Below the pieces are notes generated by a model. That model worked only from the letters and a program-made list of their open reading frames with translations. It was not told the DNA's origin and searched no databases. 64,000 nucleotides of DNA from positions 93,438 to 157,437 of the forward strand of contig CAIUMM010000015.1 of NCBI GenBank assembly GCA_903900265.1, given 5' to 3'. This DNA is from an uncultured Pseudomonadota bacterium (GTDB taxonomy: Bacteria > Myxococcota_A > UBA796 > SXON01). The position numbers and the translations under genes were made by a program. The stretch's first letter is position 1; the number at the start of each line of letters is the position of its first letter. This document shows, piece by piece, positions 1-57,675 of this stretch.

Positions 1-55
1 GGCGGCGATCGCCGCGATCGCGAGCCTGACCCGCACGCTCCCAGCGGGGACGCGG

Positions 56-499
56 GTGTTCGAGAGCGACGGCGGCGTCGCGATGTTGGGCCTGTCGGTG
101 CTTCCGTTGGCGGGCTGCTGCTTGCTGCTGGCTGGCGCGGCCGATCAGGTCGGACGCTACGGCCTGCGCGGCGTAGTGTGGGCGGTGCTGTGTACTGGCC
201 TCGCGGCGGCTTCGGGCGTAGCCGGGGGCGCGCTCGCGTGGACGCGCGAGGAAGTGCGCGTAGGACCCGGGCAGATCGCGGTGATCGCCGGCCGCGGGCT
301 CCCGAGGGTGCGCCTTTGGCGCGGAGCTGAGATCCGGCTGGAGTGCAGCGAGGTGCACGTGTACAAGGGAGTCAGCTGGAAAGTCGAGGTGGTCTCGGCT
401 TCTGGTGAGCGTCAGGTGGTCGGGCGTGCGCGCACCGAGGCGGACGCGACCGCGGCGCGGGATGCGATCCTTGCGTTGGTTCGAGCTCCGGGGGCCTGA
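56..499 (+). CDS. hypothetical membrane protein (two hydrophobic helices plus a soluble C-terminal domain)
   Basis: 147-aa ORF with hydrophobic stretches LGLSVLPLAGCCLLLAGAA and VVWAVLCTGLAAASGVAGGALAW. The same frame stays open back to base 2, so the true start may lie upstream of the window. Confidence 0.4.
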   Translation: MFESDGGVAMLGLSVLPLAGCCLLLAGAADQVGRYGLRGVVWAVLCTGLAAASGVAGGALAWTREEVRVGPGQIAVIAGRGLPRVRLWRGAEIRLECSEVHVYKGVSWKVEVVSASGERQVVGRARTEADATAARDAILALVRAPGA

Positions 500-780
500 C
501 CCGGGTGAGTCGGACTAGCGCCGACGGGCCAGATGTGTGCCCATCTCGACAACGAGCCTGAGGCGGTGTGCGCTCGGATCATCGTTTGGCGCCTTCAGGA
601 GCCACCAGCCCGCGGCGCACCGCCTGTACGGCTGCTTGTTGGAGGATGTCGGGCGGTAGCGGGCCCGCAGCACCATCCTGGAGGGTGCGCACTGCGCTCG
701 TGGTCGGGCGTCTCGCGCCGCGCGCTCGATGAACGCATTTTGAATGGTATTCATCACTCCGCGCGGACCCTTGAATCGTT

Positions 781-950
781 GCGACCGTCGCCGATTTGAT
801 GAATAAATAAGGTTATAAATTTATAAATGTCCAATCTTGCCAAGATCGTCCGGTACGGATCGATACCGGACTGCCGCGTTCTCCCCACAGTCGCGCTCAT
901 TCTGAACAGGTTTTGAGCAGGTCAATTCCGACCCTTGCCTGGAGGCAACG
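781..950 (+). promoter_or_regulatory. AT-rich upstream region of the rhodopsin gene (candidate promoter/operator plus RBS)
   Basis: Most AT-rich tract in the window. It contains TTGATG (796-801), a perfect tandem octamer TTATAAAT TTATAAAT (813-828), an imperfect hairpin CCGGTA..TACCGG (850-869), and GGAGG (941-945) 5 nt before the ATG at 951. Confidence 0.45.
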
Positions 951-1742
951 ATGTCCCTTCCCCTCGAACTCTCGTCTGGCGAGTTTCAGCTAGTCTACAA
1001 TATGTTATCGCTGGCTATCGCCGCGATGTTTGCCTCGTTCGCCTTCTTTGTGATGGTGCAGCAGCAGCTCACCGCCAAGTACCGTCCCGCGATGATCCTG
1101 TCGTCGCTCGTGGTCGGCATCGCCGGGTACCACTACTGGCGCATCTTCAACAGCTGGGAGGGTGCCTACGCGCTGAATGAAGCCGGCCGTTACGTAGCGA
1201 CCGGTGAAGCCTTCAACGACGCGTATCGGTACGTAGATTGGCTCCTGACCGTGCCGCTGTTGGTGGCCGAGCTCGTGGCCGTGTTGGCGTTGCCAAAGGA
1301 GCGTCGCGGCTCCATGATGGCGCGGTTGGTGGTCGCCAGCGCGCTCATGATCGGTCTCGGGTACCCCGGTGAAATCTCGGGCGATGCCACGACCCGCGTG
1401 GTCTGGGCGGTCTTGAGCACGATCCCCTTCGTCTACATCCTTTTCGTGCTCTACACCCAGCTCGGACAGGCGGCCAACATCAAGGATTCCGAGGTGAAGG
1501 TGCTCCTCCGCAACACGCAGTTGTTGCTTCTCGGGACTTGGGGCTTCTACCCCATCGCGTACGCGATGCCCCTGCTCGGTATCGGTGGCTCGGGGGCTAC
1601 CGTCGCACTGCAGGTCGGTTACTCGATCGCCGACATCGCTGCAAAGTGCGGCTACGGCACCATGATCTACCACATTGCACGTGCGAAGATGGCGGCTGAG
1701 GGCGTTGACGAGGCTGAAGAGCCCCGGCTCGCTTTGAAGTGA
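951..1742 (+). CDS. microbial rhodopsin, xanthorhodopsin/Gloeobacter-rhodopsin-like light-driven proton pump (DTE motif)
   Basis: 263 aa with seven hydrophobic segments. Helix-C string RYVDWLLTVPLLVAEL gives D96/T100/E107. Helix-G string YSIADIAAK gives D228 and Schiff-base K232 (nt 1644-1646). H61 lies in IAGYHYWRIFNSW. The blocks FNDAYRYVDWLLTVPLL, GYPGEIS, STIPFVYIL and GFYPIAY match my recollection of Gloeobacter rhodopsin/xanthorhodopsin. Confidence 0.95.
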   Translation: MSLPLELSSGEFQLVYNMLSLAIAAMFASFAFFVMVQQQLTAKYRPAMILSSLVVGIAGYHYWRIFNSWEGAYALNEAGRYVATGEAFNDAYRYVDWLLTVPLLVAELVAVLALPKERRGSMMARLVVASALMIGLGYPGEISGDATTRVVWAVLSTIPFVYILFVLYTQLGQAANIKDSEVKVLLRNTQLLLLGTWGFYPIAYAMPLLGIGGSGATVALQVGYSIADIAAKCGYGTMIYHIARAKMAAEGVDEAEEPRLALK

Positions 1743-1945
1743 TCGCATCCGACGATTCCGCGGTGGGTCACTACCGGACGAGCGCTGGGGCGCTGGGTTT
1801 CGTCGGCGCGCTCGGGGTTGTGGTCGGGGCGGTGTCCACGGCCACCGGCACCGAGCTGCACTTCATCGATGGGCAGGCGATGGTCGGGTTCTCCCTGCTT
1901 TATGTCGTAATCGCGATGTACATGGCGTTTGCCAAGACAGGATGA
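1739..1945 (+). CDS. small two-TM membrane protein translationally coupled to the rhodopsin gene
   Basis: The GTG start overlaps the rhodopsin TGA stop (GTGA at 1739-1742). 68 aa with two hydrophobic helices (GALGFVGALGVVVGAVSTA and MVGFSLLYVVIAMYMAF). Third-codon positions are mostly G/C, as in real genes here. Confidence 0.5.
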   Translation: MIASDDSAVGHYRTSAGALGFVGALGVVVGAVSTATGTELHFIDGQAMVGFSLLYVVIAMYMAFAKTG

Positions 1946-1952
1946 TCTCGCT

Positions 1953-1987
1953 CCGGTCTGCTGGGAAATCGACCCCCAGCGGACCGG
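1953..1987. terminator. candidate bidirectional terminator hairpin between convergent genes
   Basis: CCGGTCTGCTGGG (1953-1965), a 9-nt loop, then CCCAGCGGACCGG (1975-1987). This is a 13-bp stem with one mismatch, followed by TTCC. It lies between the rhodopsin operon (+) and the SDR gene (-). Confidence 0.45.
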
Positions 1988-2050
1988 TTCCTACCGTGGG
2001 CGGGGCGTGCGGGCGGCTGGCGTCTCTGGGGGAAAGGTCCGAAACAGGGG

Positions 2051-2773
2051 CTAGCCCTTGGTGCGCACCGTGGACCGGCCACCGTCGACTGGCAGGACCT
2101 GCCCGGTGATCCACCCCGCGTCCGGCCCGAGCAGGAAGGCAGCTGCCGCCGCCATGTCCGCCGCCTGGCCGAGCCGCGGGATCGGGTGGAGAGCGGCGAT
2201 GGACTTGGCTATGGCTTCGTTGCTCGTGAGCCCGGCCGCGAGCGGCGTGTCCGTGAGGCTGGGTGCGATGCAGTTCACCCGGATTGACGGAGCCAGATCG
2301 GCCGCGAGGCTCCGGGTGAGCGCCTCCACCGCGCCCTTCGCCGAGGCGATGACCACGTGGTTGGTGAACCCCTGCCCCGCCGCAATCGACGAGAACAACA
2401 CCACGGACCCGCCGCCGGCTCTGAGCGCGTCGTGGGCCTCGCGCACGGCCACCACCGCACCGACCACGTTTAGTCGGTAGGCGTCGACCATAGTGGCGGA
2501 GTCGACGCGACGGACCGGCTTCAACACGATGGACCCCACACAGTAGGCGAGTCCGGAGACAGTATCGCCGGCGGCGGCGATCGCGGCGGCGAGTTGGGTT
2601 TCGTCCACCACATCGGCGGCGGCCCAGGTGGCGCCGAGCTCGGCGGCAAGAGCAGCGAGGCGGCCTTCGTCGCGCGCGACGAGGTGCACGGCGCGGCCTT
2701 CGGCGACGAGCCGCCGCGCGAGCGCGGCCCCGATGCCACCGGTGCCACCAACGATCACGACGGGTCCAGACAT
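2051..2773 (-). CDS. short-chain dehydrogenase/reductase (SDR) family oxidoreductase
   Basis: 240 aa with the N-terminal Rossmann motif VVIVGGTGGIGAALARRL and a length and profile typical of classical SDRs (SSIAA...ASKGAVEAL). Confidence 0.9.
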   Translation of the reverse strand: MSGPVVIVGGTGGIGAALARRLVAEGRAVHLVARDEGRLAALAAELGATWAAADVVDETQLAAAIAAAGDTVSGLAYCVGSIVLKPVRRVDSATMVDAYRLNVVGAVVAVREAHDALRAGGGSVVLFSSIAAGQGFTNHVVIASAKGAVEALTRSLAADLAPSIRVNCIAPSLTDTPLAAGLTSNEAIAKSIAALHPIPRLGQAADMAAAAAFLLGPDAGWITGQVLPVDGGRSTVRTKG

Positions 2774-3034
2774 GTGCGCTCCATCCGAAGCGGTTCGCTT
2801 TAGCGCCGAGCACGGCGCCGGGCGAGCGTGTGCCGCGCAGTGCGAGAAGCAGCATACGGAGCGGGTGGTTCACGCGACGCCCATCCCGTGGTGGGGTGGG
2901 GGATGAGCGAGGCGGGCGCCCGGGTGCGCTCTGCGGGCGGACGGACAAGGGAAGTGCTGGGGCGCTGCAACGATGGGATGCTCTTCGCACCCGGAATGGC
3001 GAGGAGTCGAGCCGCGTCCGTAAGCCGCCGCGCG

Positions 3035-3775
3035 TCAAATCCGCCTTGCCCGCCGCGTCGGGCGGGCTGAGGGTTTACGGCGCCTCAGCAGCGCGGCGAA
3101 GAGGCCCATCGTGGTCGCCCATCCGGCAGTGGGGCTGCTCACGGTGGCGCAATGCGCGAGGTTCTCGGGGCCGACCCAACTGGAGAGCTCCCCCTCGCTG
3201 TCGATGGCGGCGGCGTAGACCTCGCCCTCGTACTCCGTGCTCCACCCTCCCCCCGGAAAGGCAAAGCCGAGCACGTCGGCCCCTTCCAGCGCGTCGAAGG
3301 GCGCTTCGGCGAACAGCACGGCCACCGCGTCCGTGCTTACCGTGATCCGGTTGGCGGGCACGGTGGGCCCGCTGCAATCCTCCTCTTTGATGTGGGTGAT
3401 GGCGGAGGCGGCGACGGTGATGCCCGGGGCGTCCGGCGCCACACCAGGGTCACCCAGCCCATCGGAGATCGTGGCCACGCAGCCTTCCTCGCCGCAACGG
3501 TCGGTGCGGTACGCGCCCGGCGCGAGCGGCGCGTCGGGGAGGATCAGCGTTTGCTCGCTGCCGTTGACGAAGAAGGACACGGACGTCGCCGCCACCTCGC
3601 CCGCTTCGCCGCTCACGGTGGCGCCCGCGTAGTCTGCGGTGAACACCGCTGCGGGCCCTGCGGTGAGACCCGGCAGGCCGAAGCCGAAGCCGTAGGGGCC
3701 GCGCGAGAGCGAGCAGGCGGAAGCAGGAGCGGGGGCGAAGGGGAGCAGGAAGATCAAGAAGAGAATGCGGCGCAT
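3035..3775 (-). CDS. secreted protein with a Cys-containing C-terminal sorting tail (MYXO-CTERM-like)
   Basis: Start trimmed to MRRILFLIFLLPFAPAPASAC (signal/lipobox-like). The C-terminus HCATVSSPTAGWATTMGLFAALLRRRKP has a Cys, a hydrophobic helix and a basic cluster. Confidence 0.6.
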   Translation of the reverse strand: MRRILFLIFLLPFAPAPASACSLSRGPYGFGFGLPGLTAGPAAVFTADYAGATVSGEAGEVAATSVSFFVNGSEQTLILPDAPLAPGAYRTDRCGEEGCVATISDGLGDPGVAPDAPGITVAASAITHIKEEDCSGPTVPANRITVSTDAVAVLFAEAPFDALEGADVLGFAFPGGGWSTEYEGEVYAAAIDSEGELSSWVGPENLAHCATVSSPTAGWATTMGLFAALLRRRKPSARPTRRARRI

Positions 3776-3955
3776 GGTGACCTCTGCAGGCACTGCAGCA
3801 ACAGGCGTGCCATGCGTGGGGTGAGCGTCGACCGGTGTAGCTTCGACCGGCTGGATCGCTCACCGGCCGCCGATGCGGCGGCCGCCGCTGGCGGCGCTCC
3901 GGGCGGACGTCGCGGCGGCGCTGTCGCGGCTGGTGGGACAGCTTAGGCTCCACCC

Positions 3956-5608
3956 ATGCCCGCACCCGTACACGTCCCCACCGCAAAGACCCACGCCCGC
4001 GTGAGCGCGCCCGTCCCTGAGCGCGTCGACGTCGCCGTGATCGGCGCCGGGCTCGGCGGCTTGATGACCGCCGCCCGACTCGCGAAGCGCGGCCGGAAGG
4101 TCGCCGTGTTGGACAGCCACTACGTCGCGGGCGGCTGCGCGACGATGTTCACCCGCGGCACCGGCGAGCAGCGGGTCAACTTCGACGTCGGCCTCCACTA
4201 CGTCGGGGACTGCGGCCCGGGCGGCCGGATCCCCGAGCTGCTGCAGGAGGTCGGGGTCGACGTCGACTGGCGCCCCCTCGACCCCGACGGCTTCGACGAG
4301 CTGGTGTTCCCCGACCTGCGCTTCCGCATCCCCGCGGACCGCGGGCTGTACCGCGACCGGCTGGTCGCTGCGTTCCCGAAGGAGAAGGCGGGCATCGATC
4401 GCTACGTGCGCCTGCTCCGGGAGGTCGAGGTGCTCGCCCGCCCCGGCGCGCCCAGAGGTTGGCGGCTCGCGTGGGAGGCCGCGACCCGCGCGCGTGTCGC
4501 CGCCGCGAACAAGGCAGAGACGCTCGGCGCATTCCTGGACTCGTGCACCCAAGACCGGCACCTGCGGGCGGTGATCGCCGGGCAGAACGGCGACTACGGC
4601 CTGCCGCCGTCCCGCGTGAGCGTGATGCTGCACGCCGGCCTCGTCAATCACTACTTCAAGGGGGCGTATTACCCGCGCGGCGGCGGCCAAGTCATCGCGG
4701 ACCAGCTGTGCGCGGTGATCGAGGCCGCAGGCGGCACGATCCACCTTCGACACCCGGTCACGGGCATCGTCGTCGAGGACGATCGCGCCGTCGGCGTGCG
4801 CTACCGCGGCCCGCACGGGATGGCGGACGCCCCCGATCCCGTTCTGCATGCGCCGCTCGTCGTCAGCAACGCCGACCTTCGGCGCACGGTGCTGGAGCTG
4901 ATGCCCTCGACCGCGGTGTCTCCCGCCTTGCGCGCAAAGGCCGAGGGCTGGGAGATGGGCGGGGCGATCTTCCTCACCTGCTTGGCGGTGCGTGCTGACC
5001 TCTCCGCGCTTGGCGCGACCAACTACTGGCAGTTCGACGACTACGACTTCGACACGATGTACTCAGAGACGCGTCACGCTGAGACGCGGGGTGTCGAGAC
5101 GCGAGGTGCCATCCCGCCCGTGCGCGGCTGCTACATCACCAGCGCCACGCAGAAGGACAAGGGCACGCCCGGCCACGCGCCCGAGGGCATCGAGACCGTC
5201 GAGGTGATGGCGCTGGTCCCCGGTGCGCCCGAGGCGTGGGGGGTGCCCGAGTCCGAGGTCGGACGCCCCCGCTACCGCAGCGGCGCCGTGTACCAGGCCC
5301 ACAAGGCGCGTATCGAGGCGGACCTCGTCGCCCGGTTGGAGCGGCTCTTCCCGGGCTCCACCCGCGAGATCGTCCACCGCGAGAGCGCGACCCCGGTGAC
5401 GCACAGCCGCTACACGAGCGCGACGGCGGGCAGCGGCTACGGTCTGGCCGCTACGCCGGACCAGTTTTTAGAGCACCGCCCGGGCCCGCGCGGGCCCGTA
5501 GCCGGGCTGTACTTCGCCGGCGGAAACCTTCGGTCCGGGCACGGGATCTCGGGCGCTTTGGCGTCCGGAGCCCAAGCGGTGCGGGTCATCGAGCGGGACG
5601 GCCGGTAG
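3956..5608 (+). CDS. FAD-dependent oxidoreductase of the CrtI / phytoene-desaturase / retinol-saturase (RetSat)-like family
   Basis: 550 aa. Carries the dinucleotide-binding motif VAVIGAGLGGL, HYFKGAYYPRGGGQ, and a C-terminal LYFAGG...GHGISGA motif typical of amine-oxidase-fold carotenoid/retinoid enzymes. Confidence 0.85.
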   Translation: MPAPVHVPTAKTHARVSAPVPERVDVAVIGAGLGGLMTAARLAKRGRKVAVLDSHYVAGGCATMFTRGTGEQRVNFDVGLHYVGDCGPGGRIPELLQEVGVDVDWRPLDPDGFDELVFPDLRFRIPADRGLYRDRLVAAFPKEKAGIDRYVRLLREVEVLARPGAPRGWRLAWEAATRARVAAANKAETLGAFLDSCTQDRHLRAVIAGQNGDYGLPPSRVSVMLHAGLVNHYFKGAYYPRGGGQVIADQLCAVIEAAGGTIHLRHPVTGIVVEDDRAVGVRYRGPHGMADAPDPVLHAPLVVSNADLRRTVLELMPSTAVSPALRAKAEGWEMGGAIFLTCLAVRADLSALGATNYWQFDDYDFDTMYSETRHAETRGVETRGAIPPVRGCYITSATQKDKGTPGHAPEGIETVEVMALVPGAPEAWGVPESEVGRPRYRSGAVYQAHKARIEADLVARLERLFPGSTREIVHRESATPVTHSRYTSATAGSGYGLAATPDQFLEHRPGPRGPVAGLYFAGGNLRSGHGISGALASGAQAVRVIERDGR

Positions 5609-5623
5609 GGTTCTGCGCGCGCC

Positions 5624-6382
5624 CTACCCAACCTTCTGCCCCCGCAGGTAGATCCACCAGTAGGTGAGCGCCACGAGGCCGCCCCCTCCGACCACGTTCC
5701 CGGCGGTCACCGCGACAAGGTTCCGCGCGGCACCTGCAAGGTCGAGCCCGCCGAGCATCGCGGCGAGCGGCAGCAGGTAGAAGTTGGCGACTGAGTGCTC
5801 AAACCCGCAGGCGACGAACGCCGCGATCGGCCCGACGATGACGAGCACCTTCTCGCCGGTGCCCTCGCACGCGGTCGCGCACCACACCGCGAGGCAAACG
5901 AGGACATTACAGAGGATCCCACGCACAAAGGCGACCCCGAAGGGCAGGGCGACCTTGGCGGTGGCGACCGCGATCACCGTGGCCCGCACCGGCTCGGCGG
6001 GGTGGGAGAGCGCGACGAGCACCGCGAGCCCAACCGCGCCGACGGCGTTTCCGGCCAACACCACCGCCCAGGTGCGGAGCAGCCGGCCGATCGAGAGCCG
6101 CCCGGCGGCCGCCGCGATCACCAGCAGGTTGTCGCCGGTGAAGAGCTCCGCGCCGGCCACCACCACGAGGACCAAGCCCACGGAGAACACCCCGCCCGCG
6201 AGCACCTGACGAAGCCCGTACCCGAGCCCTTCGGTGCCGGTGAGCGCCACCATCGCGAGCTGCGCGGCGATCGCGATGAACGCCCCGGCCAACACCGCGA
6301 GCGGGAACATCGTCGCCAGCGGCGCACGTGCGCGCTCCTCCCCCGCGGAGAGCACTTTTGCCGCAACATCTGCAGGGGTCAC
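5624..6382 (-). CDS. formate/nitrite transporter (FNT) family channel
   Basis: 252 aa and polytopic. GAELFTGDNLL and FEHSVANF are hallmark FNT motifs. Confidence 0.9.
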   Translation of the reverse strand: MTPADVAAKVLSAGEERARAPLATMFPLAVLAGAFIAIAAQLAMVALTGTEGLGYGLRQVLAGGVFSVGLVLVVVAGAELFTGDNLLVIAAAAGRLSIGRLLRTWAVVLAGNAVGAVGLAVLVALSHPAEPVRATVIAVATAKVALPFGVAFVRGILCNVLVCLAVWCATACEGTGEKVLVIVGPIAAFVACGFEHSVANFYLLPLAAMLGGLDLAGAARNLVAVTAGNVVGGGGLVALTYWWIYLRGQKVG

Positions 6383-6448
6383 GACGCCATCCTGTTTCTG
6401 GGGATCAAGCTACTCACGCGGAGGTAGATCGCGGAGCCCCCCGCGCAT

Positions 6449-6706
6449 TCAACCCGCCGGATCCTGACCCGCCGCGCGCCGCTTCAGCTCGCGCAGGTGC
6501 CACTGATACAGGCTCTCTACCTTGGTTCGCGCCCACGGGGTCTTGCGCAAGAACTTCAAGCTCGACGCGATGCTGGGATCCTTGCTGAAGCAGTTGAGCG
6601 GGATCATCTCAGCGAGCTGCTCCCACCCCCAGGTTTCGAACAGCTGGGTGACCATCTGCTCCAAGGTGATGCCGTGGAGCGGGTTCTTGGGTTGTACGAG
6701 CGGCAT
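6449..6706 (-). CDS. VF530/DUF2132-family small DNA-binding-like protein
   Basis: Start trimmed to [16 protein letters not shown], with AAGGAG 5 nt upstream. The [24 protein letters not shown] block matches my memory of DUF2132. Confidence 0.7.
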
Positions 6707-6717
6707 GGGGGCTCCTT

Positions 6718-7254
6718 TCAGCTGCGCGCGCGGCGGGGCTTGACCGACCATGTGAACGAAAAGCGGCTGACCTCGCTGCCGTCGGCGAGGGTACCGACGC
6801 TGTGCAGGGTGAACGTGCGTGACTCGCCGGTGGCTTTGGCCTCGCGCACCGCGTCGAACACCACCGCACCTTGCTCGCAGACGAACGTGGCCGTAGATGT
6901 CGCTTTTTTACCGAATGAAGCCTGCATGTCGACGATGAGGATCGAGAACGGCACGCCGGCGTCCTCCAGCGCGAGCATCCCCAAGGCGCCGGTGGACATC
7001 TCCGCGGCCATCGCCTGCGCGGCAAAGTACGTGGATCGAAAGGGGTTTTGGCTACGCCAGCCGTAGGGCACCGCCGCGACGCAGCGCTGCGTGTCGACGC
7101 TCACGAGGCGCACGCCGGTGAACCAAGCCGAGGGCAGCTTCAGCAGCGACCACGTCGCGAACGCGAAGGGGTAGCGGATCCGGTGCCGCAGCAGCTCAGC
7201 CGAGGGGGAGAGCGCGGTCGGGGCTGTCGGGGACTGCGAGGCGGGAGTTTCCAT
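6718..7254 (-). CDS. hot-dog-fold thioesterase-like protein (DUF4442-like)
   Basis: 178 aa. Overall pattern is a beta-sheet-wrapped helix domain, with [16 protein letters not shown]. The family call is from memory only. Confidence 0.5.
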
Positions 7255-7287
7255 CGAGTGGCATCTACCCCGCTGTCCGCCGGTCGG

Positions 7288-8931
7288 TCAGGGGTAGGCG
7301 CCGGTGCGCGGGATCGCGTAGATCCGGGCCTCCCCGCTCGTCGCGATCGGCTGGGATGCGGCGGTGATCCAAGCGTCCATGGCGCGGCGGGCGGGCGTGA
7401 GCTGGTCGTTCGGGAGCGCGTCGATCACCACGTACGGAATCGGGCCGTCGCCCTGACATTCATGGCGCATGATCGTGATGCACTCGGCAAAACCCTGCTC
7501 GGTCGCGGACATCGGACAGGCGGTGTGCGGGCAATAGGGCATGCCGGCGTAGGGCAAGGGGTCGCGCAGGATGCTCGCCGCGCCGCCGCCGGCCGGAAAG
7601 CGCTCGGCGAGCACTTTTCCAAGCTGCAACGCCTGTTCGGCGGGGTCCTCGCCGTTCTGGCGCGGCAAGGGCGCGCGCTGCAGGTCGTCGGCTTGATCGC
7701 GCAGCACGCACCCGACTGCCAGCACGCCTTCCGCCAGCATCGCGGCGCGCACCGCATCGAGGCGCCACCATCGAAACCGCAGCCCGGCGGCGTGCACGCC
7801 CGCCACCATCGTTGAAGCCCCGCGCGCGAGCAGCAAGATCCCGACCGGCAGCAGGTTCTGGCTGTAGCGCGCCGGCGCGTTTGCAGCGGCGAGCGCGATC
7901 ATCGGCGCGCAGGCCAGCACCAACGGCAAACCTTCGCCCACCGAGCGCGCGGCCCAGCGCAGCCGCTCCTTCCAGCGCGGCGCGCCTAAGACGTGCTCGC
8001 CGGGTTGAAAGGCGCGCGGTCCAAGCAACCCGGCCCAGAACAGCGCGATCGAGAAGGTCCACGGCGTCCCCAGATGAAACTCGGTGACGATGCGGTTCAG
8101 CGCGGTGGTGACGGCGCGCGGGGCGTTGGCTTGCAGCGTCTGCAGCGCCGCCGCCCGGGACGCCGCGGCCGCGGCCGGCGAGGTGTTCCCCGCGGTGGTG
8201 GCGATGCCTTCGGCAAAAACGTCGGTCACCATGTCGCGCGGCATCAGCGGGAACACCCGGTAGACGGCGTACACCGTCAACGCCGCGGAACCCACGTACA
8301 GCAGCAGCGCGAGCCAACGCCAGCCCCCCCGCCCAGTAAACAAGCACATCGCGGCGCCGGTCACCCAGAACGCGATCGCGGTCAGGTGGGCGGTCGCGGT
8401 CAGCCCGCCGATCATCCCGGCGACCGGCGCGAACCACCACCACCTGCCCGCGACGCGCGCGCTCAGCAGCGTCGCGACCACGAGCAGCTCCACCGTCGGA
8501 TCGACGCCAAACACCGCCGCCGCCGACAGCAGCGCGGGATGAAACGCGACCATCGCCGCCGCGGCAAACGCGGCGCCGCGCAGCCCGATCGCGCGCCCTA
8601 AGGCATAGACCGCGGGCCCCAACAGCAGGTGCATCCCGCGATTCAGCAGGTGACCGGCCGACGCGACGTCGAGGTGCGTCAGCGTCATGGTGATGCCGGT
8701 CAGCAGCGTCCACGTCGGCATGCGGTGGTCGTCGAGGTCGCCGTAGCGGCCTTGCGCGAACGCGACGGCGTTTTCGGCCCAGGACGCCGAGTCCGGCCCG
8801 GTGATGTACCGGTCGGAGACGTAGCGCCAGCCGCTGCTCACTGCGCCGGCGCGATGCCAGCCTTGAAAGGGCAGCAACAGCAGGATCGCGACCGCGAGCG
8901 CGTCGAAGGCCCGAGCGACGCGCGGGGTCAC
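7288..8931 (-). CDS. polytopic membrane protein, GT-C/ArnT-PMT-like glycosyltransferase candidate
   Basis: Start trimmed to a GTG overlapping the upstream stop (GTGA at 8928-8931). About 12 hydrophobic segments, plus a first-loop pattern DSASWAENAVAFAQGRYGDLDDHRMPTW like ArnT/PMT_2 proteins. Confidence 0.6.
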   Translation of the reverse strand: MTPRVARAFDALAVAILLLLPFQGWHRAGAVSSGWRYVSDRYITGPDSASWAENAVAFAQGRYGDLDDHRMPTWTLLTGITMTLTHLDVASAGHLLNRGMHLLLGPAVYALGRAIGLRGAAFAAAAMVAFHPALLSAAAVFGVDPTVELLVVATLLSARVAGRWWWFAPVAGMIGGLTATAHLTAIAFWVTGAAMCLFTGRGGWRWLALLLYVGSAALTVYAVYRVFPLMPRDMVTDVFAEGIATTAGNTSPAAAAASRAAALQTLQANAPRAVTTALNRIVTEFHLGTPWTFSIALFWAGLLGPRAFQPGEHVLGAPRWKERLRWAARSVGEGLPLVLACAPMIALAAANAPARYSQNLLPVGILLLARGASTMVAGVHAAGLRFRWWRLDAVRAAMLAEGVLAVGCVLRDQADDLQRAPLPRQNGEDPAEQALQLGKVLAERFPAGGGAASILRDPLPYAGMPYCPHTACPMSATEQGFAECITIMRHECQGDGPIPYVVIDALPNDQLTPARRAMDAWITAASQPIATSGEARIYAIPRTGAYP

Positions 8932-29326: not shown

Positions 29327-30925
29327 TCAAGTCCGCCCGCTGTTCCGCGCGGTGCCCGGCGCCCTGCGCCAGCGCTGGACGACCAGCCCGAGCGCGAGCA
29401 GCGCGCCGGTCGCTTGGGCCGACGCTGATCCCGCTTCCGCTCCCGCTCCGCCGCTGCAGCCGCCACAGCTCACCGCGTCGATCGGCGTGGCTACGCCGGG
29501 CAGGTTCGCGTCCCCGCTGCTCGCTGAGTCGCCGCCGCCGTTGGGGTCCAGACAGCCGGCGGTTGCGTCACACTCCAAGCCCGCGGCTGCGCAGTCTTGC
29601 TCGGTGTACACGCCCCCTGCGCACGCGGTGAGCACGCCGGCGTCGGAGCACGCGCGTGCGTCGGGCCCGTTGGTGCAGCGTGGGTCTACGCATGCGGCGG
29701 CGCCGTCGCCCTCCCAGCACGATTGAGCGGTCGCGGTGCAGTCGCTCTCGGCGTAGACGCCCGCCGCGCAGCTTCCATACAAGCCGGAGTCGGTGCAGAA
29801 CGCGCTGTTGGGGCCGGCTTCGCAGCGGGGGTCCATGCAGGAGGCGCCGCTCGCGTCGGTGCCGCAGACCAGCCCGAAGGCCGCGCAGTCTCCTTCGGAG
29901 TACACACCGTCGTTGCAGGAAGCGGCGCGGGTCGCGTCGAGGCAGGACACGCCCGAGCCCGAGCCGCCGGGGCAGCGGTAGTCGACGCAGTACGCGGTGT
30001 TGCCGTCTTCTTCGCAGGTCGCGCCGTACGCGGCGCAGTCTCCGGACCCGAGCGATCGCCCGCCCTGACAGGTGGTGATCACCGAGCCGTCGCACCAGCG
30101 GCCGTTGGCGAGGGTGCAGGCGGGATCGATGCTGTCCGAGTAGACGATGCCGAGGTGGTTGGCGACGGTGCGCGGAGAGCCGTCGGACGGGTTGTTTTTG
30201 ACGTCGCCTTCGATGACCAAGGTGGAGCTGCCGCCGCCGTCGAGCATCGCGCCGTCCCAGCAGTCGAATTGCAGCATCATGTCGCGCGTCTCGTCGCAGG
30301 TCATGCCGGCCGCGGTGCTGGTGCGGCCATCGATGACGAACAACCACAGCGTCGTGCCATCGGCGAGCAAGCACATCGCGCTGCGCGGGTTGCGGGAGGT
30401 GTCGTAGCACCCGGACTCAGCCGCGCCGTCGGAGACGAGGATCTCGCCGTTCATGCCGATGGCTTGAAAGTAGCGGTAGGGCGCGAGCGTCGGGGTGGTG
30501 AACCACCACGCGACATCGGTGGGCTTTTCGGCGTCGATGGTGCAGTCTTTGTCGACGGTGCAGCCAAAATAGCCCCAGCGCGAGCCAAGGTCGTTGTTGG
30601 CGAGGTGGTTGTGCCACTGCACGCCGTCGGAGATCGCGAGGCCGACCGGCGTGGTCGCGTCCGACCAGTCGCCGTTGATGCCGACCAGCACATCGGCGTT
30701 GTTCGCGAACGTCGGGGTCGTGACGTGGCGCTCGTCGCCGGTGGTGGAGTTCGACGAGTGGATGCCGACGTTCGGCACGGTGAGGTCGATGCGCGTGGCG
30801 TAGATGTCCTGCCCGTCGGCCTTGCGGTGCAGGTAGTCCACGCCGTTGCGGATGTTGGTCCAGGTGTCGCCCGCGTGCGCGGTGCGCGCGGCGAGCGTGG
30901 CGAGCAGGATTCCAGAGAGCAACAT
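29327..30925 (-). CDS. phosphodiester glycosidase (DUF2233/NAGPA-like) with Cys-rich repeats and MYXO-CTERM-like tail
   Basis: The ATG overlaps the upstream TAA (TAATG at 30923-30927). Signal peptide MLLSGILLATLAARTAHA. GINGDWSD and MLDGGGSSTLV blocks are present. There are five to six C..G....C..G.Y..GDCAA.G..C modules. The tail is CGGCSGG...LLALGLVVQRWRR. Confidence 0.7.
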   Translation of the reverse strand: MLLSGILLATLAARTAHAGDTWTNIRNGVDYLHRKADGQDIYATRIDLTVPNVGIHSSNSTTGDERHVTTPTFANNADVLVGINGDWSDATTPVGLAISDGVQWHNHLANNDLGSRWGYFGCTVDKDCTIDAEKPTDVAWWFTTPTLAPYRYFQAIGMNGEILVSDGAAESGCYDTSRNPRSAMCLLADGTTLWLFVIDGRTSTAAGMTCDETRDMMLQFDCWDGAMLDGGGSSTLVIEGDVKNNPSDGSPRTVANHLGIVYSDSIDPACTLANGRWCDGSVITTCQGGRSLGSGDCAAYGATCEEDGNTAYCVDYRCPGGSGSGVSCLDATRAASCNDGVYSEGDCAAFGLVCGTDASGASCMDPRCEAGPNSAFCTDSGLYGSCAAGVYAESDCTATAQSCWEGDGAAACVDPRCTNGPDARACSDAGVLTACAGGVYTEQDCAAAGLECDATAGCLDPNGGGDSASSGDANLPGVATPIDAVSCGGCSGGAGAEAGSASAQATGALLALGLVVQRWRRAPGTARNSGRT

Positions 30926-33900
30926 TACGAAGGCGACCCGTTTGCGCGGCGGCGACGAACCAGCGCCAGCGCGCCGATCATCCACGCTGCGCCGACCACG
31001 CTGGCGGGCGCGTCGGCCGTGGAGCAGCCACAGCCTCCGCCGCCCGCGGTCGTGCCGGTGTCATCGTCGACGTTGGGCACGTTGTCGCTGCTGTCCCCGG
31101 TATCGCCGCCGGTGTCGCCGCCGGTGTCGCCGCTGTCGCAGAGTCCGATGGCCGCGTCGGTGTCGTCACAGTCGTCTTCGACGCCGTAGCCGTCGCCGTC
31201 TTGATCCTGATCATTGCCGTCGCAGTTCTGATCGACGCCGTCGTACCAGGTCTCGGCCGCGTCGGGGTTGACCGAGGCGTCGTCGTCGTTGCAGTCATCG
31301 CCGCCGACCTCGGCGCTGTAGTCGGCGCTCGCGTGGCCGTCGGCGTCGGCGTCGTAGTCGTTGGCGCCGTCGCAGTCGCTGTCGATGCCGTCGTACCAAG
31401 CGTCGGCTGCGCCGGGGTTGACGTCGGAGTTGGCGTCGTCGCAGTCATCGCCGCCGACCTCGGTCGCGTAGTAGCCGTCTGCGTCGGCGTCGCCTTCGTG
31501 CGCGTTGTTGCAGTCGGTGATGCGGCCGTCGTAGGGGTCATCGGGGGCGCCGGGGTACACCGCGCTGTCGCTGTCGTCGCAGTCGTCCCCGCCGTAGGTA
31601 GCCGAGTTGTAGCCATCGCCGTCGGCGTCCAGATCGTTGCCATCGCAGTCCTGATCGACGCCGTCGTACCATACCTCCGGGGTGGCCGGGTTGATCGCTG
31701 CGTTGGTGTCGTCGCAGTCGTCACCGCCGTACGCAGACGACGTGTAGCCGTCGCCGTCGGCGTCGTAGTCGTTGGCGCCGTCGCAGTCGCTGTCCACGCC
31801 GTCGTAATCGCTGTCGGCCGCGCCCGGGTAGACGGCGGCGCTGGTGTCGTCGCAGTCGGCTCCGCCCGCGGCCACCGCGGCGTAGCCATCGCCGTCGACG
31901 TCGGTCACGTCGAGGCCGTCGCAGTCTTGATCGATGCCGTCGTACGGGACCTCGGTGGCGCCGGGGTACACGCTGGCGTCGGTGTCGTCGCAGTCGGTGC
32001 TCTCGTAGTAGCCGTCGGAGTCGGCGTCGGTCAGGATCGCCAGCGGACCGCCGAACGCGCCGATGTCCGAGGTGGTGCCGTCCGGGTCGACGATCGAGGG
32101 ATCGCCCGCGTCGATGAGCGTGCTCGCGGCGTCGAGGGTCAGATCGTCGTTGTCGCAGTCGCCGTCGAGGCTGTAGTCGGCCAGCAGCGGGTCCGCGGTG
32201 AGGTTGCCGCGCCCGGTGATCGACGCCGCGGTCAGGTAGCCGCCGGTGTCGGCGCTGGTGTTGCTGTACCAGTCGTTGTAGCGCAGCGACGCGTAGGTGG
32301 ATTCGTAGCCGGAGCCGTCGTAGATCGCCGTTCCCGACCCGGTCCAAGCAAAGATGTTGTTGGTGTAATCGACGTAAGCGCCGCCGAGGTACACGCCGCC
32401 GCCGTAAGTGGCGCTGTTGCCGATCACCGTGTTGTTGGTGAAGTCGGTGTAGTACTCGTAGTAGTGGAGCAGCGCGCCGCCGTAGGTCGCGGTGTTCTCC
32501 TCGAACACGTTGTTGCTCCAGTCGTCCGACATGCCGAGGTTGGAGTAGCTGTAGACGCCGCCGCCGTAGACCGCGGAGTTCCCGCAGAAGTGGTTGTTGG
32601 TGACCGACCGGGTGTTGTTGTAGTAGGTGTACATCGCGCCGCCGGCCGAGCTGGCGGTGTTGTCTTCGAAGTGGTTTCGGTCGAGGGCGACCGAGTCGAA
32701 GTAGTACGCGCCGAGGCCCCCAGCCGACACGGCGGTGTTGTCGGAGAACGTCGAGCTGGTCAGCGAGAACGTGCTGGTGCCGCCGTAGGTGCCCATCGCG
32801 ATGAAGCCGCCGCCGGTGCCCAACGTGGACGTGTTGCCCGCGAAGGTCGTGCTGTCGACGGTGGTGTCGGTGGCGTAGTACGCGTAGGCGCCGCCGCCGT
32901 CGTAGTACGCGGTGTTGTCGGTGAACACGCTGTCGTTGATCGCCGCGCCGGTGTTGTAATAGTAGTACAAACCGCCGCCGTAGCCGGCGGTGGCGCTGTT
33001 GCCGTCAAAGGTGACGGCGTTGAGCGCGAGCGTGTCGCCCAACGACGACACGTAGATGCCGCCGCCGCTGTAGTAGCTGGCGTTGTCGATGAACGAAGTG
33101 TCGGTGAACGACGCGGTGCCCGTCGAAGACAGGTAGGCTCCGCCCCCGGAGTACAAGCCGGTGTTGCCGGAGAACCGCGTGCCGCTGACGGTGAGGTCGA
33201 AGTTGTCGTAGGCGTAGATTCCGCCGCCATAGTAGTAGGCGTAGTTGCCTTCGAAGATGGAGTCTTCTACCGACAGTTCGCCGCGCGAATAGTCGGTGAT
33301 CGTGCCGTAGTAGCTGATGGTGCCGGTGAACGTGGTGTTGGTGATCACCGCGTCGGCGTGGTCGTACAGGCCGAGCGCGCCGCCGTAGAAGCCGACGTTC
33401 GACGTGAACGTGGCGCCGTCGATGACCCCGCTGGAGTTGTTGGTGAGCAAGACCGCGCCCCAGTACCCGGAGCTCCAGTAGACAGCGGCGTTTCCAGAGA
33501 AGGTGCCGCCCGAGATGGTGACGTCGGCGCCGGTGGCGTAGAGCGCAGCCCCGCTGGTGTAGTAGCCGGAGTTGTCAGTGAAGTCGGTGTCGGTGAACGT
33601 GCCGCTGGTCGAAGATTGCAGCGACACGCCGCCGGTGTAGTACGTGAACGTAGATCGCACGGTGGAGTCGCTGACGTCGAGCGTGCCGTCGGCCACGTAG
33701 ATGGCGCCGCCATAGTAGGCCCAGCCGCCGTCAAAATCGCAGTTCGTGAACACCGGCTCGGCGCCGCCGTCGACGTAGACGTGGCCGCCTTGATAGCCGT
33801 AGTTGTCCGAGAAGTTGACCGTGTCGAAGGTCGGCGCGCCGCCGTCTATCGAAACGCCGCCGCCGTACACGTAGCCGTACACATAGGAGGTGCTGCCGGA

Positions 33901-34293
33901 GTCGGTGATGCTGAGGTTGCTGAACGTCGGGCTGCTGTTCTCGGTCTGGATCGCGTGGCCGCCGGAATTGCGCACGGTAAAGCCGGACAGCGCTGCGCTG
34001 CTGGACTCGCCGGAGTCCAAGGTCACCGCGCTGGTGGCCCCATCGCCGTCGATGATCGTGACCGCCGCGCCGCCGGTGGAGGAGATGTCGAGGTTCTTGC
34101 CCTTGTAGTCGACGGTCTCTTTGTAGGTGGCGGGCAGCACCGAGATCGAGTCGCCGCTGCTCGCGGCGTTGATCGCGGCTTGGATGGTCGTGTAGTCGCC
34201 GGATCCGTAGCGATCGACGGTCCAAGAGGCCGCGAAGGCCGGGGTAGCGATTCCGCCGAGGGCGAGGACGATCAACAACCGATGTGCGCGCAT
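30925..34293 (-). CDS. giant secreted right-handed beta-helix protein (PMP-type GGAxY/FxxN repeats) with MopE-like acidic repeats and MYXO-CTERM tail
   Basis: Start trimmed to MRAHRLLIVLALGGIATPAFA. It has dozens of about 20-25-aa repeats containing GGA(I/L)Y, GGGIY and F.DN.. . Six and a half DGDGY..DCDD...PGA.E..YDG.DQDCDG repeats follow. It ends GGGGCGCSTA...GALALVRRRR. Confidence 0.85.
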   Translation of the reverse strand: MRAHRLLIVLALGGIATPAFAASWTVDRYGSGDYTTIQAAINAASSGDSISVLPATYKETVDYKGKNLDISSTGGAAVTIIDGDGATSAVTLDSGESSSAALSGFTVRNSGGHAIQTENSSPTFSNLSITDSGSTSYVYGYVYGGGVSIDGGAPTFDTVNFSDNYGYQGGHVYVDGGAEPVFTNCDFDGGWAYYGGAIYVADGTLDVSDSTVRSTFTYYTGGVSLQSSTSGTFTDTDFTDNSGYYTSGAALYATGADVTISGGTFSGNAAVYWSSGYWGAVLLTNNSSGVIDGATFTSNVGFYGGALGLYDHADAVITNTTFTGTISYYGTITDYSRGELSVEDSIFEGNYAYYYGGGIYAYDNFDLTVSGTRFSGNTGLYSGGGAYLSSTGTASFTDTSFIDNASYYSGGGIYVSSLGDTLALNAVTFDGNSATAGYGGGLYYYYNTGAAINDSVFTDNTAYYDGGGAYAYYATDTTVDSTTFAGNTSTLGTGGGFIAMGTYGGTSTFSLTSSTFSDNTAVSAGGLGAYYFDSVALDRNHFEDNTASSAGGAMYTYYNNTRSVTNNHFCGNSAVYGGGVYSYSNLGMSDDWSNNVFEENTATYGGALLHYYEYYTDFTNNTVIGNSATYGGGVYLGGAYVDYTNNIFAWTGSGTAIYDGSGYESTYASLRYNDWYSNTSADTGGYLTAASITGRGNLTADPLLADYSLDGDCDNDDLTLDAASTLIDAGDPSIVDPDGTTSDIGAFGGPLAILTDADSDGYYESTDCDDTDASVYPGATEVPYDGIDQDCDGLDVTDVDGDGYAAVAAGGADCDDTSAAVYPGAADSDYDGVDSDCDGANDYDADGDGYTSSAYGGDDCDDTNAAINPATPEVWYDGVDQDCDGNDLDADGDGYNSATYGGDDCDDSDSAVYPGAPDDPYDGRITDCNNAHEGDADADGYYATEVGGDDCDDANSDVNPGAADAWYDGIDSDCDGANDYDADADGHASADYSAEVGGDDCNDDDASVNPDAAETWYDGVDQNCDGNDQDQDGDGYGVEDDCDDTDAAIGLCDSGDTGGDTGGDTGDSSDNVPNVDDDTGTTAGGGGCGCSTADAPASVVGAAWMIGALALVRRRRANGSPS
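31138..32028 (-). repeat. about 138-bp coding tandem repeats (6.5 units) encoding MopE-like putative metal-binding motifs
   Basis: Repeat units of 44-49 aa were counted from the protein sequence. The first unit starts at GACGCCGACTCCGACGGC (minus strand, 32028). Confidence 0.85.
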
Positions 34294-34423
34294 ATAGAGC
34301 TCCGAGTCGCGGTGAGTATGCGTCATTCCGGCGGGGAGATCAAGGGGTTTGGGGGCGAGACGTGGGGGGCGCTACACCAGCGGCTACACCATGAAGCAAG
34401 CCCCCTTGTGCTACCGTCTGCCG

Positions 34424-36436: not shown

Positions 36437-36602
36437 GAGAGGCTCCTGTAGAGGGTCCGCGAAGGGTATCGTGCCGCTGATCACACCGCCGCTGCGCTCC
36501 GGTCGGTCGTTACGGGATCGTGGCCGCCGGCTCGGGGAGCAGTACGGCGGAATCTATGCGCGTCGGTGACGCCGTGGGGAGATGGGGATACAGCATCCCA
36601 AT

Positions 36603-37541
36603 ATGCGTTTGCGCGGCGTTCTCTCCGTTGCTCCGACCCGCCCAGCGGCGGGCTTGGCGTTCTTCGTGTGCGTCGCGGGCTCGGCGTGCGACCGGACTCC
36701 GGAAGTCCCACCCGCGTCGTCCCCGTCGCCCCCGTCGGCCGCGCAGGCGGGCGCAGCTTCTCCCGCTCCTCCCGCTCACTTGACTTCGTTTGGGTACGAC
36801 CTCGTGCGGGTGGCCGCCGGTACCTACTCCATCGGCAGCCCTCCGGACGAGCCCGGCCGCCGCGCCGACGAGATCCAGCACTCGGTCACGCTCTCCCAGG
36901 GGCTCCTCATCGGCACCACCGAGCTGACGCAGGCGCAGTACCAGTCCGTGCAGAAAGACAACCCCGCAGCTCGCCCCGACTGCTACCGAGCGGGAAACGC
37001 GGCGGACCCTGCGGGCGACCAGCCGGCATACTGCGTGAGCTGGCTCGATGCCGTGGGGTTCGCCAACGCGGCAAGCATCGCCGAGGGGCTGCCGGAGTGC
37101 TACCGCATCGATGGTGTCACGGTCCTCTGGCCGGATTCCGCGTGTATCGGCTTCCGCCTTCCCACCGAGGCCGAGTGGGAGGTCGCCGCGCGCGCCGGCT
37201 CGCACGCCCCGTTCAGCGGGGCTGACACGATCGAGCCCGTGGGTTGGTTCGCCGGCAACAGCGGCGGCGCCAGCCACCCGGTCGGGCAGCTCGCTCCCAA
37301 CCCGCTTGGCCTGTACGACATGAGCGGCAACGTCTGGGAGTGGACCTGGGACATCTACGACGACGACCCCTACGGCTCCGACACGGATCCGCAGGGCGCG
37401 TTGGACGGCCCGGTCCGCTCGGTGCGGGGCGGTTCGTACCTCTACGCCTCGGCGTACGCACGCACGGCCGCGCGGGGGCGCAGCAGCCCCCAGGTCCGGT
37501 CGGACACCATCGGCGTCCGCCTCGTGCGCACCCTGCCCTGA
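36603..37541 (+). CDS. formylglycine-generating enzyme (FGE/SUMF1) family protein, lipoprotein-like
   Basis: Start trimmed to MRLRGVL...VAGSAC. PAYCVSWLDAVGFAN, FRLPTEAEWEVAARAG, YDMSGNVWEWTWD and RGGSY blocks are present. Confidence 0.9.
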   Translation: MRLRGVLSVAPTRPAAGLAFFVCVAGSACDRTPEVPPASSPSPPSAAQAGAASPAPPAHLTSFGYDLVRVAAGTYSIGSPPDEPGRRADEIQHSVTLSQGLLIGTTELTQAQYQSVQKDNPAARPDCYRAGNAADPAGDQPAYCVSWLDAVGFANAASIAEGLPECYRIDGVTVLWPDSACIGFRLPTEAEWEVAARAGSHAPFSGADTIEPVGWFAGNSGGASHPVGQLAPNPLGLYDMSGNVWEWTWDIYDDDPYGSDTDPQGALDGPVRSVRGGSYLYASAYARTAARGRSSPQVRSDTIGVRLVRTLP

Positions 37542-50315: not shown

Positions 50316-50316
50316 G

Positions 50317-50649
50317 CTACAACCCGCACTGCAAGAAGGTGTCCAGCCGGGATAGGTCGTCGTCTGGCACACCCCCGCCTACCGGCATGTCCTGCTGTTC
50401 GAGCACCCGCACCCGCACCCGCGCGGCAAAGGCCCGCACGTCCGCCAGCGTGTCGAAGTCCACGCCATCAGGCGCGCCGTGCCGGTCCGCAGTGGTCGAC
50501 GAGTGGCAGGTGCGGCAATAGCCGCCGAAGAAGCCCGCCCCCCAGTCCTGCCACGTCACCCGTTCCTCGGCGCACGGGTCCGCGCTGTCCGAGCCGGGCG
50601 ACGCGCACGCGATGGCGAACAGAAGCAGCACTTGGTTACCATAGCACAA
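50317..50649 (-). CDS. small c-type cytochrome-like lipoprotein
   Basis: 110 aa (start could be GTG 50631). Lipobox LLFAIAC. CRTCH heme-binding motif, with a downstream DMPVGG as a possible Met ligand. Confidence 0.65.
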   Translation of the reverse strand: MCYGNQVLLLFAIACASPGSDSADPCAEERVTWQDWGAGFFGGYCRTCHSSTTADRHGAPDGVDFDTLADVRAFAARVRVRVLEQQDMPVGGGVPDDDLSRLDTFLQCGL

Positions 50650-50655
50650 CGCCGG

Positions 50656-52248: not shown

Positions 52249-52330
52249 ATCCGTCCAAGCGTGCTACGGTCGGCCCAACATGCCGCGGCCACAAAGTCGC
52301 GCGTCGTGCCTACCGCGCGGACCGTGGCGC

Positions 52331-54288: not shown

Positions 54289-54385
54289 GTGGGGCGGCTC
54301 CGTTACACGCCCTCGGGCGTTTGTGCTTGTGTATCGCGTACGTGCCGATCGGCACGCCGCCGCACCCGGAGCGCGCGCTGCCGCG

Positions 54386-55939: not shown

Positions 55940-56065
55940 CAGCGGGCTCCGCAGTAGATGCCGACGCGGTCGTACGCAGCGCTGGTACGCTTGGGGTCGC
56001 TCATGGCGGGGTCATAGCCTATCCAGCCTCAAGTCGACGTAGGGACGGGCTATGCTGGCAACATC

Positions 56066-57628: not shown

Positions 57629-57675
57629 CCGCTGTTCATCGTTGCGTGCGCGGGTCTAAGGCCGACGCGATTCGC

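Follow-up and report, generated by a model that had tools for sequence, protein, structure and literature searches.

Light-driven pump rhodopsins are generally viewed as the product of one gene that works with no more than retinal and, in some cases, a carotenoid. An opsin with a two-helix membrane partner is known from the sensory pair SRII-HtrII. Here we analyzed a stretch of 64,000 nucleotides, referred to below as the window, from an uncultured Pseudomonadota bacterium (GTDB lineage Myxococcota_A; UBA796; SXON01; assembly GCA_903900265.1, contig CAIUMM010000015.1, positions 93,438 to 157,437 of the forward strand). It carries an intact xanthorhodopsin-type rhodopsin gene (951-1742, plus strand), such as has been found before in many uncultured aquatic Myxococcota, together with a small open reading frame (ORF) for a 68-aa two-helix membrane protein (1739-1945, plus strand). 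We consider it probable that the pump and its coupled small partner form an old Myxococcota cassette that has been shuffled within the lineage.

The closest solved structure is Kin4B8 from freshwater Bdellovibrionota (7YTB/8I2Z), which is 60% identical to the window rhodopsin, has the same DTE triad, and is listed as sharing a freshwater origin with it. Xanthorhodopsin (XR) of Salinibacter ruber (3DDL) is 58% and Gloeobacter rhodopsin (GR) 53% identical. The corresponding matches have E values of 3.9e-85 (3DDL), 4.9e-85 (7YTB) and 3.6e-82 (GR, 6NWD), while the Na+ and Cl- pumps (about 1e-29) and the proteorhodopsins (about 1e-24) are weaker relatives. Both the E values and a tree thus group the protein with XR, GR and Kin4B8 rather than with proteorhodopsin (PR) or the NQ/NTQ pumps. 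In a Pfam scan, the search that a first-pass annotation made from the sequence alone had proposed, the 263-aa product matched PF01036 (Bac_rhodopsin) at E 8.4e-37 (127 bits, cutoff 24.6).

That annotation had listed H61, D96, T100, E107, D228 and K232, and all of them are found exactly as stated. The alignment with XR is one to one at the key positions, L104 included (XR H62, R93, D96, T100, L104, E107, D236 and K240), the DTE residues having the same numbering in both proteins. H61 corresponds to XR H62, the helix B histidine paired with the acceptor Asp, and K232 to XR K240, the Schiff-base Lys, while D96, T100 and E107 occupy the helix C positions equivalent to 85, 89 and 96 of bacteriorhodopsin. 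An AlphaFold2 (AF2) model has seven helices (9-39, 45-72, 92-112, 116-142, 146-174, 180-205 and 214-249) with predicted local distance difference test (pLDDT) values of 82-97 over the pump. Foldseek gave it target-normalised TM-scores of 0.90-0.94 to Kin4B8, psXR, GR and XR, with 0.90 for XR, whose B-C beta hairpin it shares, and 0.91-0.92 for Kin4B8. The first-pass annotation had staked its assignment on where these residues map; it passes that test because the alignment and the model put the DTE residues on helix C (92-112) and D228 and K232 on helix G (214-249).

DTE is present in all 120 of the closest homologues, and dN/dS of the rhodopsin is 0.13-0.19. Its motif, residues and closest structures support the earlier call of a DTE proton pump of the xanthorhodopsin clade, and the protein is almost certainly an outward H+ pump as judged from these sequence features. 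By family precedent, the 951-1742 product would be a green-tuned (L104) outward light-driven pump in which the retinal attached to K232 would isomerise, the proton of the Schiff base would be handed to the acceptor pair H61-D96, close to T100, and E107 would reprotonate the Schiff base from the cytoplasm.

The protein database contained over 6,000 homologues at E <= 1e-30. The best 120 of these were examined; they are 67-100% identical to the window protein, and all organism names attached to them are Myxococcota or Myxococcales. A species-level search of 185,579 genomes, one per GTDB species, yielded as its best 22 loci what we call the clade loci, with rhodopsins 65-89% identical to that of the window. 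The metagenome-assembled genomes (MAGs) concerned are labeled almost without exception as Myxococcota, Polyangiales, Polyangiaceae, Nannocystaceae, Kofleriaceae or 'Deltaproteobacteria'. Below about 63% identity follow Chloroflexota, Verrucomicrobiota, Bdellovibrionota, Cyanobacteria, Deinococcota and Salinibacter. In a neighbor-joining (NJ) tree the sequences group largely by phylum, with the window protein inside the Myxococcota group and joined to that of the related locus L003 with a bootstrap of 100%. Since the clade occurs almost only in Myxococcota or 'Deltaproteobacteria' MAGs, a recent import from another phylum is argued against. By its sequence, the window itself is part of a Myxococcota-type chromosome. 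The MYXO-CTERM-like tails noticed earlier on neighboring genes were recovered above the family cutoffs, with TIGR03901 on the 1133-aa product of 30925-34326 (minus strand; 25.6 bits for the whole protein and 30.8 for the tail alone, cutoff 20) and, more weakly, TIGR03382 on that of 3035-3793 (minus strand; 17.7 vs. a cutoff of 15.85). Record names such as BUCK21, GROS21, ME-09jul19 and ZH-15may19 hint at a possible origin from lake metagenomes.

The first-pass annotation had described the lineage as one usually taken to be strictly chemoheterotrophic. This is contradicted by Li et al. (2023; PMC10576062), who describe photosynthesis gene clusters in Myxococcota MAGs, several of them with 'proteorhodopsin' and blh. 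The rhodopsins of these Myxococcota MAGs, including related proteins that NCBI names 'bacteriorhodopsin-like [Myxococcota bacterium]', belong to the same clade as that of the window. A rhodopsin in Myxococcota is therefore no longer surprising.

The second gene is where this locus departs from the described systems. It begins with a GTG that overlaps the stop codon of the rhodopsin (GTGA), and its end, 1945, is the end coordinate that had been given in the first-pass annotation. A homologue lies directly 3' of the rhodopsin stop in 20 of the 22 clade loci, in hosts of 40% to 75% GC; the remaining two comprise one weak match and one truncated contig. In nearly all loci the start either overlaps the rhodopsin stop or lies no more than about 15 nt away. 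The small ORF is also found in the contexts of the homologues P0004, P0007, P0340 and P0312. The window has a dedicated 68-aa ORF, whereas the Salinibacter and Salinivenus loci have none, and it was likewise absent from every other xanthorhodopsin locus examined from other phyla, including the Bdellovibrionota loci related to Kin4B8. The carriers of the small ORF are the same set of loci as the rhodopsin clade, and only that set. A weak second copy (E 6.5e-5) was seen upstream of the rhodopsin in a locus of 47% GC (L016, 9467-9685, plus strand), besides the regular downstream copy.

Members of the small-protein family share, in this order, an N-terminal GHYxTxG motif, a hydrophobic helix, a short F-I-D loop and a second helix that is often followed by W-M-x-R. 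The hydrophobic segments of the window protein lie at about residues 15-37 and 46-66, leaving tails of about 15 and 3 residues and no cytoplasmic signalling domain. When 1.84 billion representatives were searched exhaustively with a profile, 183 cluster representatives of this family were recovered, nearly all of 55-110 aa, and both of the two distant members sampled again adjoin a PF01036 gene. Being short and without a match in Pfam or NCBIfam, the 68-aa ORF might be regarded as fortuitous, or as a shadow ORF, in DNA so rich in GC. This is extremely unlikely, as the protein motif is kept across hosts from 40% to 75% GC, the position and the start-stop coupling are fixed, independent gene callers also call the ORF, and its dN/dS of 0.25-0.6, higher than in the rhodopsin and below 1, indicates that it is under purifying selection. 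The 183 representatives and a natural fusion to an opsin likewise speak against a chance ORF.

That fusion, P0352 (336 aa), joins a degenerate opsin N-terminal part to the small domain at residues 249-311, and it is found in identical form in two independent assemblies (L087, 6001-7011; L088, 1012-2022). The opsin part matches helices A-D of the window protein (BLASTP E 2e-12), has Val for the acceptor Asp, gives no PF01036 match and, by eye in the unaligned helix G region, has no Schiff-base Lys. P0334 is a fragment of a related fusion. The domain order of P0352 is consistent with both ends of the small protein lying in the cytoplasm.

A two-helix membrane protein encoded in the same operon as an opsin recalls SRII-HtrII, as does an opsin-partner fusion without pump residues, and the two genes could accordingly be read as a photoreceptor with an HtrII-like minimal transducer. 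Such a sensory role is very unlikely. The opsin, unlike the sensory one, has the full set of pump residues (D96, T100, the carboxylic donor E107 and H61), with DTE kept throughout the close homologues; the partner, in contrast to HtrII, is only 60-100 aa long and its short tails hold no signalling domain; and in many relatives blh and crtY lie in the same cluster, as in pump photosystems. The linkage and conservation described above suggest instead that the small protein most likely associates physically with the pump as an accessory subunit. We propose, as a tentative and less secure extension, that this two-helix protein of 60-100 aa is a stoichiometric, clade-specific subunit that tunes oligomerisation, stability, or the loading of carotenoid or retinal, and would possibly be the first dedicated protein partner known for a light-driven H+ pump. 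Of clade-specific surface residues of the rhodopsin that could mark an interface, only P46, M123 and M247 stand out, too few to interpret.

The two genes form a conserved cassette of about 1.1 kb (842-1945, plus strand), which is the sole stretch with DNA homology to the closest relatives. With blastn, the window matches L003, whose rhodopsin is 89% identical, over 842-1938 at 79% identity, and L086 over 939-1929 at 80% identity, and in both cases the flanks are unrelated. None of the genes flanking the rhodopsin in the window recurs beside the rhodopsin in any related locus, including L003, P0004 (87%) and P0007 (83%). Within the cassette, the rhodopsin would be the first cistron and 1739-1945 a second, translationally coupled one.

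Further evidence comes from a contig of a near relative (sample ERZ1426830) that encodes an FAD-oxidoreductase at least 90% identical to the 3956-5608 product, with the next eight genes in the order of the window (FNT, VF530, DUF4442, Band_7 and so on). As read from its gene list, a 297-aa and a 284-aa gene there replace the block of rhodopsin, small ORF, SDR and 252-aa gene, and the cassette is thus absent from an otherwise syntenic site. The synteny breakpoint lies just upstream of the FAD-oxidoreductase gene (window 2051-5608 compared). These unrelated neighborhoods and the absence from the syntenic site imply that the cassette was relocated, or gained or lost, within the phylum. Hallmarks of a mobile island were not found: the window contains no tRNA, the neighboring genes have no integrase or transposase domains in Pfam scans, and no convincing flanking direct or inverted repeats, target-site duplication or terminal repeat were detected around the cassette.

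The first-pass annotation had described the rhodopsin as an AT-richer islet and had taken it for a laterally acquired module. Part of the islet description stands. The most AT-rich tract of the window does precede the gene (795-834; 17% GC, vs. 40% in the next most AT-rich 40-mer), contains a perfect 14-bp palindrome, TTATAAATTTATAA, at 813-826, and sits just outside the left edge of the cassette, without a counterpart in L003 or L086. A consensus scan found no sigma-70 site in this tract and no intrinsic terminator, and Rfam gave no match at E <= 1 in window positions 1-8000; the tract may be a promoter or a junction. The rhodopsin gene is also lower in GC than the window (0.61 vs. 0.69), the deficit lying in codon positions 1 (0.60) and 2 (0.42). 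The claimed deviation at third positions and the many A/T-ending codons were not borne out. Of the 262 codons, no more than 47 have A or T in third position (TTT 3, TAT 1, AAT 2, TTA 1), and the GC content at third codon positions (GC3) is 0.82, which is the sixth lowest of 47 genes that range from 0.78 to 0.99 around a median of about 0.87. When amino-acid content is taken into account, the synonymous GC3 is 0.81, where 0.87 would be expected (z = -2.9), with lower values in 5 of the 46 other genes.

A recent import from another phylum, as a compositionally foreign islet behind an AT-rich junction, would account for the lower GC of the gene, the extreme tract abutting the left cassette end, the slightly low synonymous GC3 and the absence of the cassette from the syntenic site of a close relative. 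However, comparison with other loci gives the composition another meaning. Across 71 xanthorhodopsin-clade loci the GC3 of the rhodopsin tracks the GC of its flanks (r = 0.96), and the rhodopsin is below its flanks in GC in all 32 hosts above 62% GC, by a mean of 4.6 points (8 points in the window). As this is seen in all GC-rich hosts, low GC is a property of the conserved hydrophobic family and no mark of recent arrival. Its synonymous codon usage is not deviant either, with five window genes lower in GC3 and a low GC that is family-wide. Composition does not mark the rhodopsin as foreign, and its GC3 is ordinary. Since the nearest relatives are moreover Myxococcota MAGs with a private partner ORF, and the signs of mobile elements are missing, an import from another phylum is unlikely. 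What remains of the earlier proposal is a 1.1-kb unit that was relocated, or gained and lost, within the lineage; the reading as a foreign, compositionally marked islet in a non-phototrophic lineage falls.

For blh, a BCD hidden Markov model (HMM) built from six relatives was run against the six-frame translation of the window and gave no match. As stated in the first-pass annotation, neither blh nor crtY or any other crt gene was found in the 64 kb, whether with HMMs from relatives, Pfam scans or precomputed Pfam assignments; SQS_PSY and polyprenyl synthase domains were likewise missing from the Pfam scans. In contrast to the canonical photosystem operon (rhodopsin, crtEBIY, blh), the window cassette comprises no more than the rhodopsin and the small ORF, and unlike XR its rhodopsin has no adjacent ketolase or blh gene. 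In the relatives, rhodopsin and small ORF are commonly followed by crtY and/or blh, with a divergent MerR gene on the 5' side; the order rhodopsin, small ORF, crtY, blh occurs in L008, L011 and L013, and an adjacent blh in others. About half of the related cassettes are flanked by blh, crtY and MerR (LitR/CarH-like) genes, from which that of the window is separated; its retinal would therefore have to be made by genes at another place in the genome or be taken up from the surroundings.

Two neighboring genes were considered as links to this pathway and dropped. The 3956-5608 product (plus strand) is a 550-aa flavoprotein of the CrtI/CrtISO superfamily that carries the JGI name 'phytoene dehydrogenase-like', but it scores only 106-117 bits against the NCBIfam models CrtI, CrtD, CrtO and CrtISO (cutoffs 238-587), far below what a carotenoid enzyme would require. 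Neither its association with the rhodopsin nor that of the SDR gene (2051-2773) is conserved in any related locus, and the similarity of the flavoprotein to a neighbor in L019 is limited to short segments of the shared flavoprotein fold and does not amount to full-length homology.

The missing genes could also mean that the opsin works without retinal in this organism, for instance in a structural or lipid-scramblase role, in a genome without retinal synthesis. The existence of opsin-bearing genomes without blh is acknowledged as puzzling, and a scramblase activity that does not need retinal has been reported (PMC12805836); the subclade to which the window belongs is, moreover, rarely linked to blh, as described below. 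Yet blh was seen in only 11 of the 21 other clade loci within the flank available (up to 10 kb on each side), so that its absence from the window says little about the genome, and the 64 kb are part of a much larger genome whose contig alone has 222 kb. The retinal-pocket and pump residues are, in addition, under purifying selection at the low dN/dS given above. We therefore regard a retinal-free opsin as improbable.

At the antenna position the window differs from the systems in which carotenoid binding has been established. Gly156 of XR opens a lateral fenestration where the carotenoid ring contacts the retinal, and replacement by Phe abolishes carotenoid binding in Kin4B8 (bioRxiv 10.1101/2022.08.24.505090). 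In place of the Gly of antenna-bearing xanthorhodopsins (Gly156 in XR, Gly153 in Kin4B8), the window has Ala153 on helix E (codon 1407-1409), as do L003, L004 and L010. At the floor of the fenestration, Kin4B8, which binds lutein and zeaxanthin, has the polar residues Ser208/Tyr209, whereas the alignment gives Leu-Leu in the window; the matching positions of XR are reported as hydrophobic, and the window resembles XR in this respect. Among the best 120 homologues, 116 could be scored at position 156 (Ala 47, Gly 68, Ser 1). The Ala subclade is linked to blh in one of the six contexts seen, vs. about 10 of 14 Gly-type loci. No data on a Gly-to-Ala change at the fenestration were found in the literature. 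The substitution suggests a weakened or altered binding of the carotenoid antenna in the Ala subclade.

Upstream of the rhodopsin, an alignment of the leaders of the window, L003 and L086 revealed the invariant block CCGGTACG..TCG.TAC. An inverted repeat, TCCGGTA-N8-TACCGGA (849-870), is partly conserved in the same two loci, and a Shine-Dalgarno sequence GGAGG (941-945, plus strand) lies 5 nt 5' of the ATG within CTGGAGGCAACGATG, which is invariant in all three. Between them lies a direct repeat, TGAACAggtttTGAGCA (903-919, plus strand), with an 11-bp period and a TnnACA core, which we consider a putative operator of the CarH/LitR type of MerR regulators. Its two repeats have the cores T..ACA / T..GCA, and the element is conserved in L003 and L086 and across the clade. 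A position weight matrix (PWM) finds an 11-bp-spaced TnnACA pair upstream of most clade rhodopsins, scoring 21.5 bits in L005 and 12-14 bits in L016, L018, L017, L020, L022 and L033, all outside the matrix, compared with about 4-6 bits in shuffled sequence. The DNA-binding consensus of CarH is nAnnTnnACAn in 11-bp direct repeats (PMC8156234), a geometry that the pair shares, although its match to the consensus is partial.

A divergent MerR-family gene adjoins the rhodopsin in seven related loci; these genes are at 8840-9829 in L008, 7155-8225 in L013 and 181-1134 in L007 (all minus strand), and also occur in L011, L015, L018 and L033. The helix-turn-helix of their products is closest to CarH 5C8D (E 3e-17), LitR 3WHP and CarA 2JML. 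Unlike CarH, however, these regulators have no B12-binding domain, and their C-terminal domain of about 240 aa has no family match and contains invariant C-E-C, C and H residues. They resemble the LitR classes of the non-B12 type reported by Takano's group (PMC9758184), and may represent a new non-B12 LitR class that controls the rhodopsin operon. In the window, expression would probably be controlled in trans via the 903-919 repeat.

One of these loci, L011, belongs to the MAG LLY-WYZ-16_1, which is listed among the Myxococcota MAGs bearing a photosynthesis gene cluster (PMC13043013), and its rhodopsin is 72% identical to that of the window. The locus has the full set, in the order MerR regulator, rhodopsin, small ORF, crtY and blh. 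Because a photosynthesis gene cluster and a full rhodopsin set occur in one MAG, it is a candidate for dual phototrophy.

Several observations weigh against an old Myxococcota cassette that carries a coupled pump and partner and is shuffled within the lineage. The taxon labels of the MAGs are noisy, with two loci assigned to 'Enterobacteriaceae' and one to 'Bdellovibrionales', the former label being evidently wrong for loci of 70-75% GC, and the bootstrap of the Myxococcota clade in the NJ tree is only 53%. The slightly low synonymous GC3 of the rhodopsin belongs here as well. As the cassette is non-syntenic among relatives, it may also have been transferred between Myxococcota. The 903-919 repeat matches the CarH consensus only in part, as it consists of two repeats where three or four would be expected and has a T where position 2 of the consensus is A, and an HMM built from the regulators of the relatives detected no cognate MerR regulator in the window, which also lacks blh. 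Finally, AF2 gave no confident docking for an artificial fusion of the rhodopsin and the small protein, with pLDDT values of 32-44 in the small part; this test is weak and no evidence either way, since the alignment held only the window's own sequence in the small-protein region. Taken together, we still find it likely that the cassette is old in an aquatic Myxococcota lineage and has been shuffled among chromosomal sites, with no recent import from another phylum.

Other features of the window were noted in passing. The 1133-aa MYXO-CTERM protein (30925-34326, minus strand) contains five MopE-type putative metal-binding repeats (PF11617) as well as Chlamydia-PMP repeats, and none of the other longer genes in the window is as strongly GC3-biased as the one that encodes it (z = +5). 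A sulfatase-rich stretch (36582-37541 and 46553-57628) includes three paralogous sulfatases (50656-52248, 52867-54288 and 56066-57628), an FGE-type sulfatase-modifying enzyme, an EF-hand protein, DUF1501 and a product with faint PSCyt2 and PSD4 matches, a gene set that recalls planctomycete-style polysaccharide degradation. A run of very short ORFs at 29793-30803 (GC3 0.92-0.99) and two stretches in which a simple GC3-based caller placed no gene (47806-49437 and 57628-59254) may represent miscalled or frameshifted genes. Two ORFs on the minus strand were treated as non-genes, namely 1005-1748, a shadow ORF antisense to the rhodopsin, and 515-757, which public gene callers do not call.

The rhodopsin itself adds little to what is known, since pumps of the xanthorhodopsin type have already been annotated, and mentioned in publications, for MAGs of aquatic Myxococcota, and its low GC in a high-GC genome reflects the amino-acid composition of the family and gives no evidence of recent transfer. 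The small partner ORF, by contrast, appears to be new. No literature on a small ORF downstream of rhodopsin genes was found, and the accessible portions of the reports on Myxococcota rhodopsins, which note the rhodopsin and blh only, make no mention of the conserved downstream ORF, of the Ala-for-Gly subclade or of the CarH-like repeat. Surveys in which environmental xanthorhodopsins are assigned to either a 'Gly' or a 'bulky' type skip the intermediate Ala state of a large subclade. Our findings point to a whole clade of pump rhodopsins with a strictly linked micro-membrane protein whose translation is apparently coupled to that of the pump, and which in one lineage has been fused to an opsin scaffold. 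If the proposed partnership is true, it would be this partner, rather than a fenestration-bound carotenoid, that shapes the photosystem in the Ala153 subclade.

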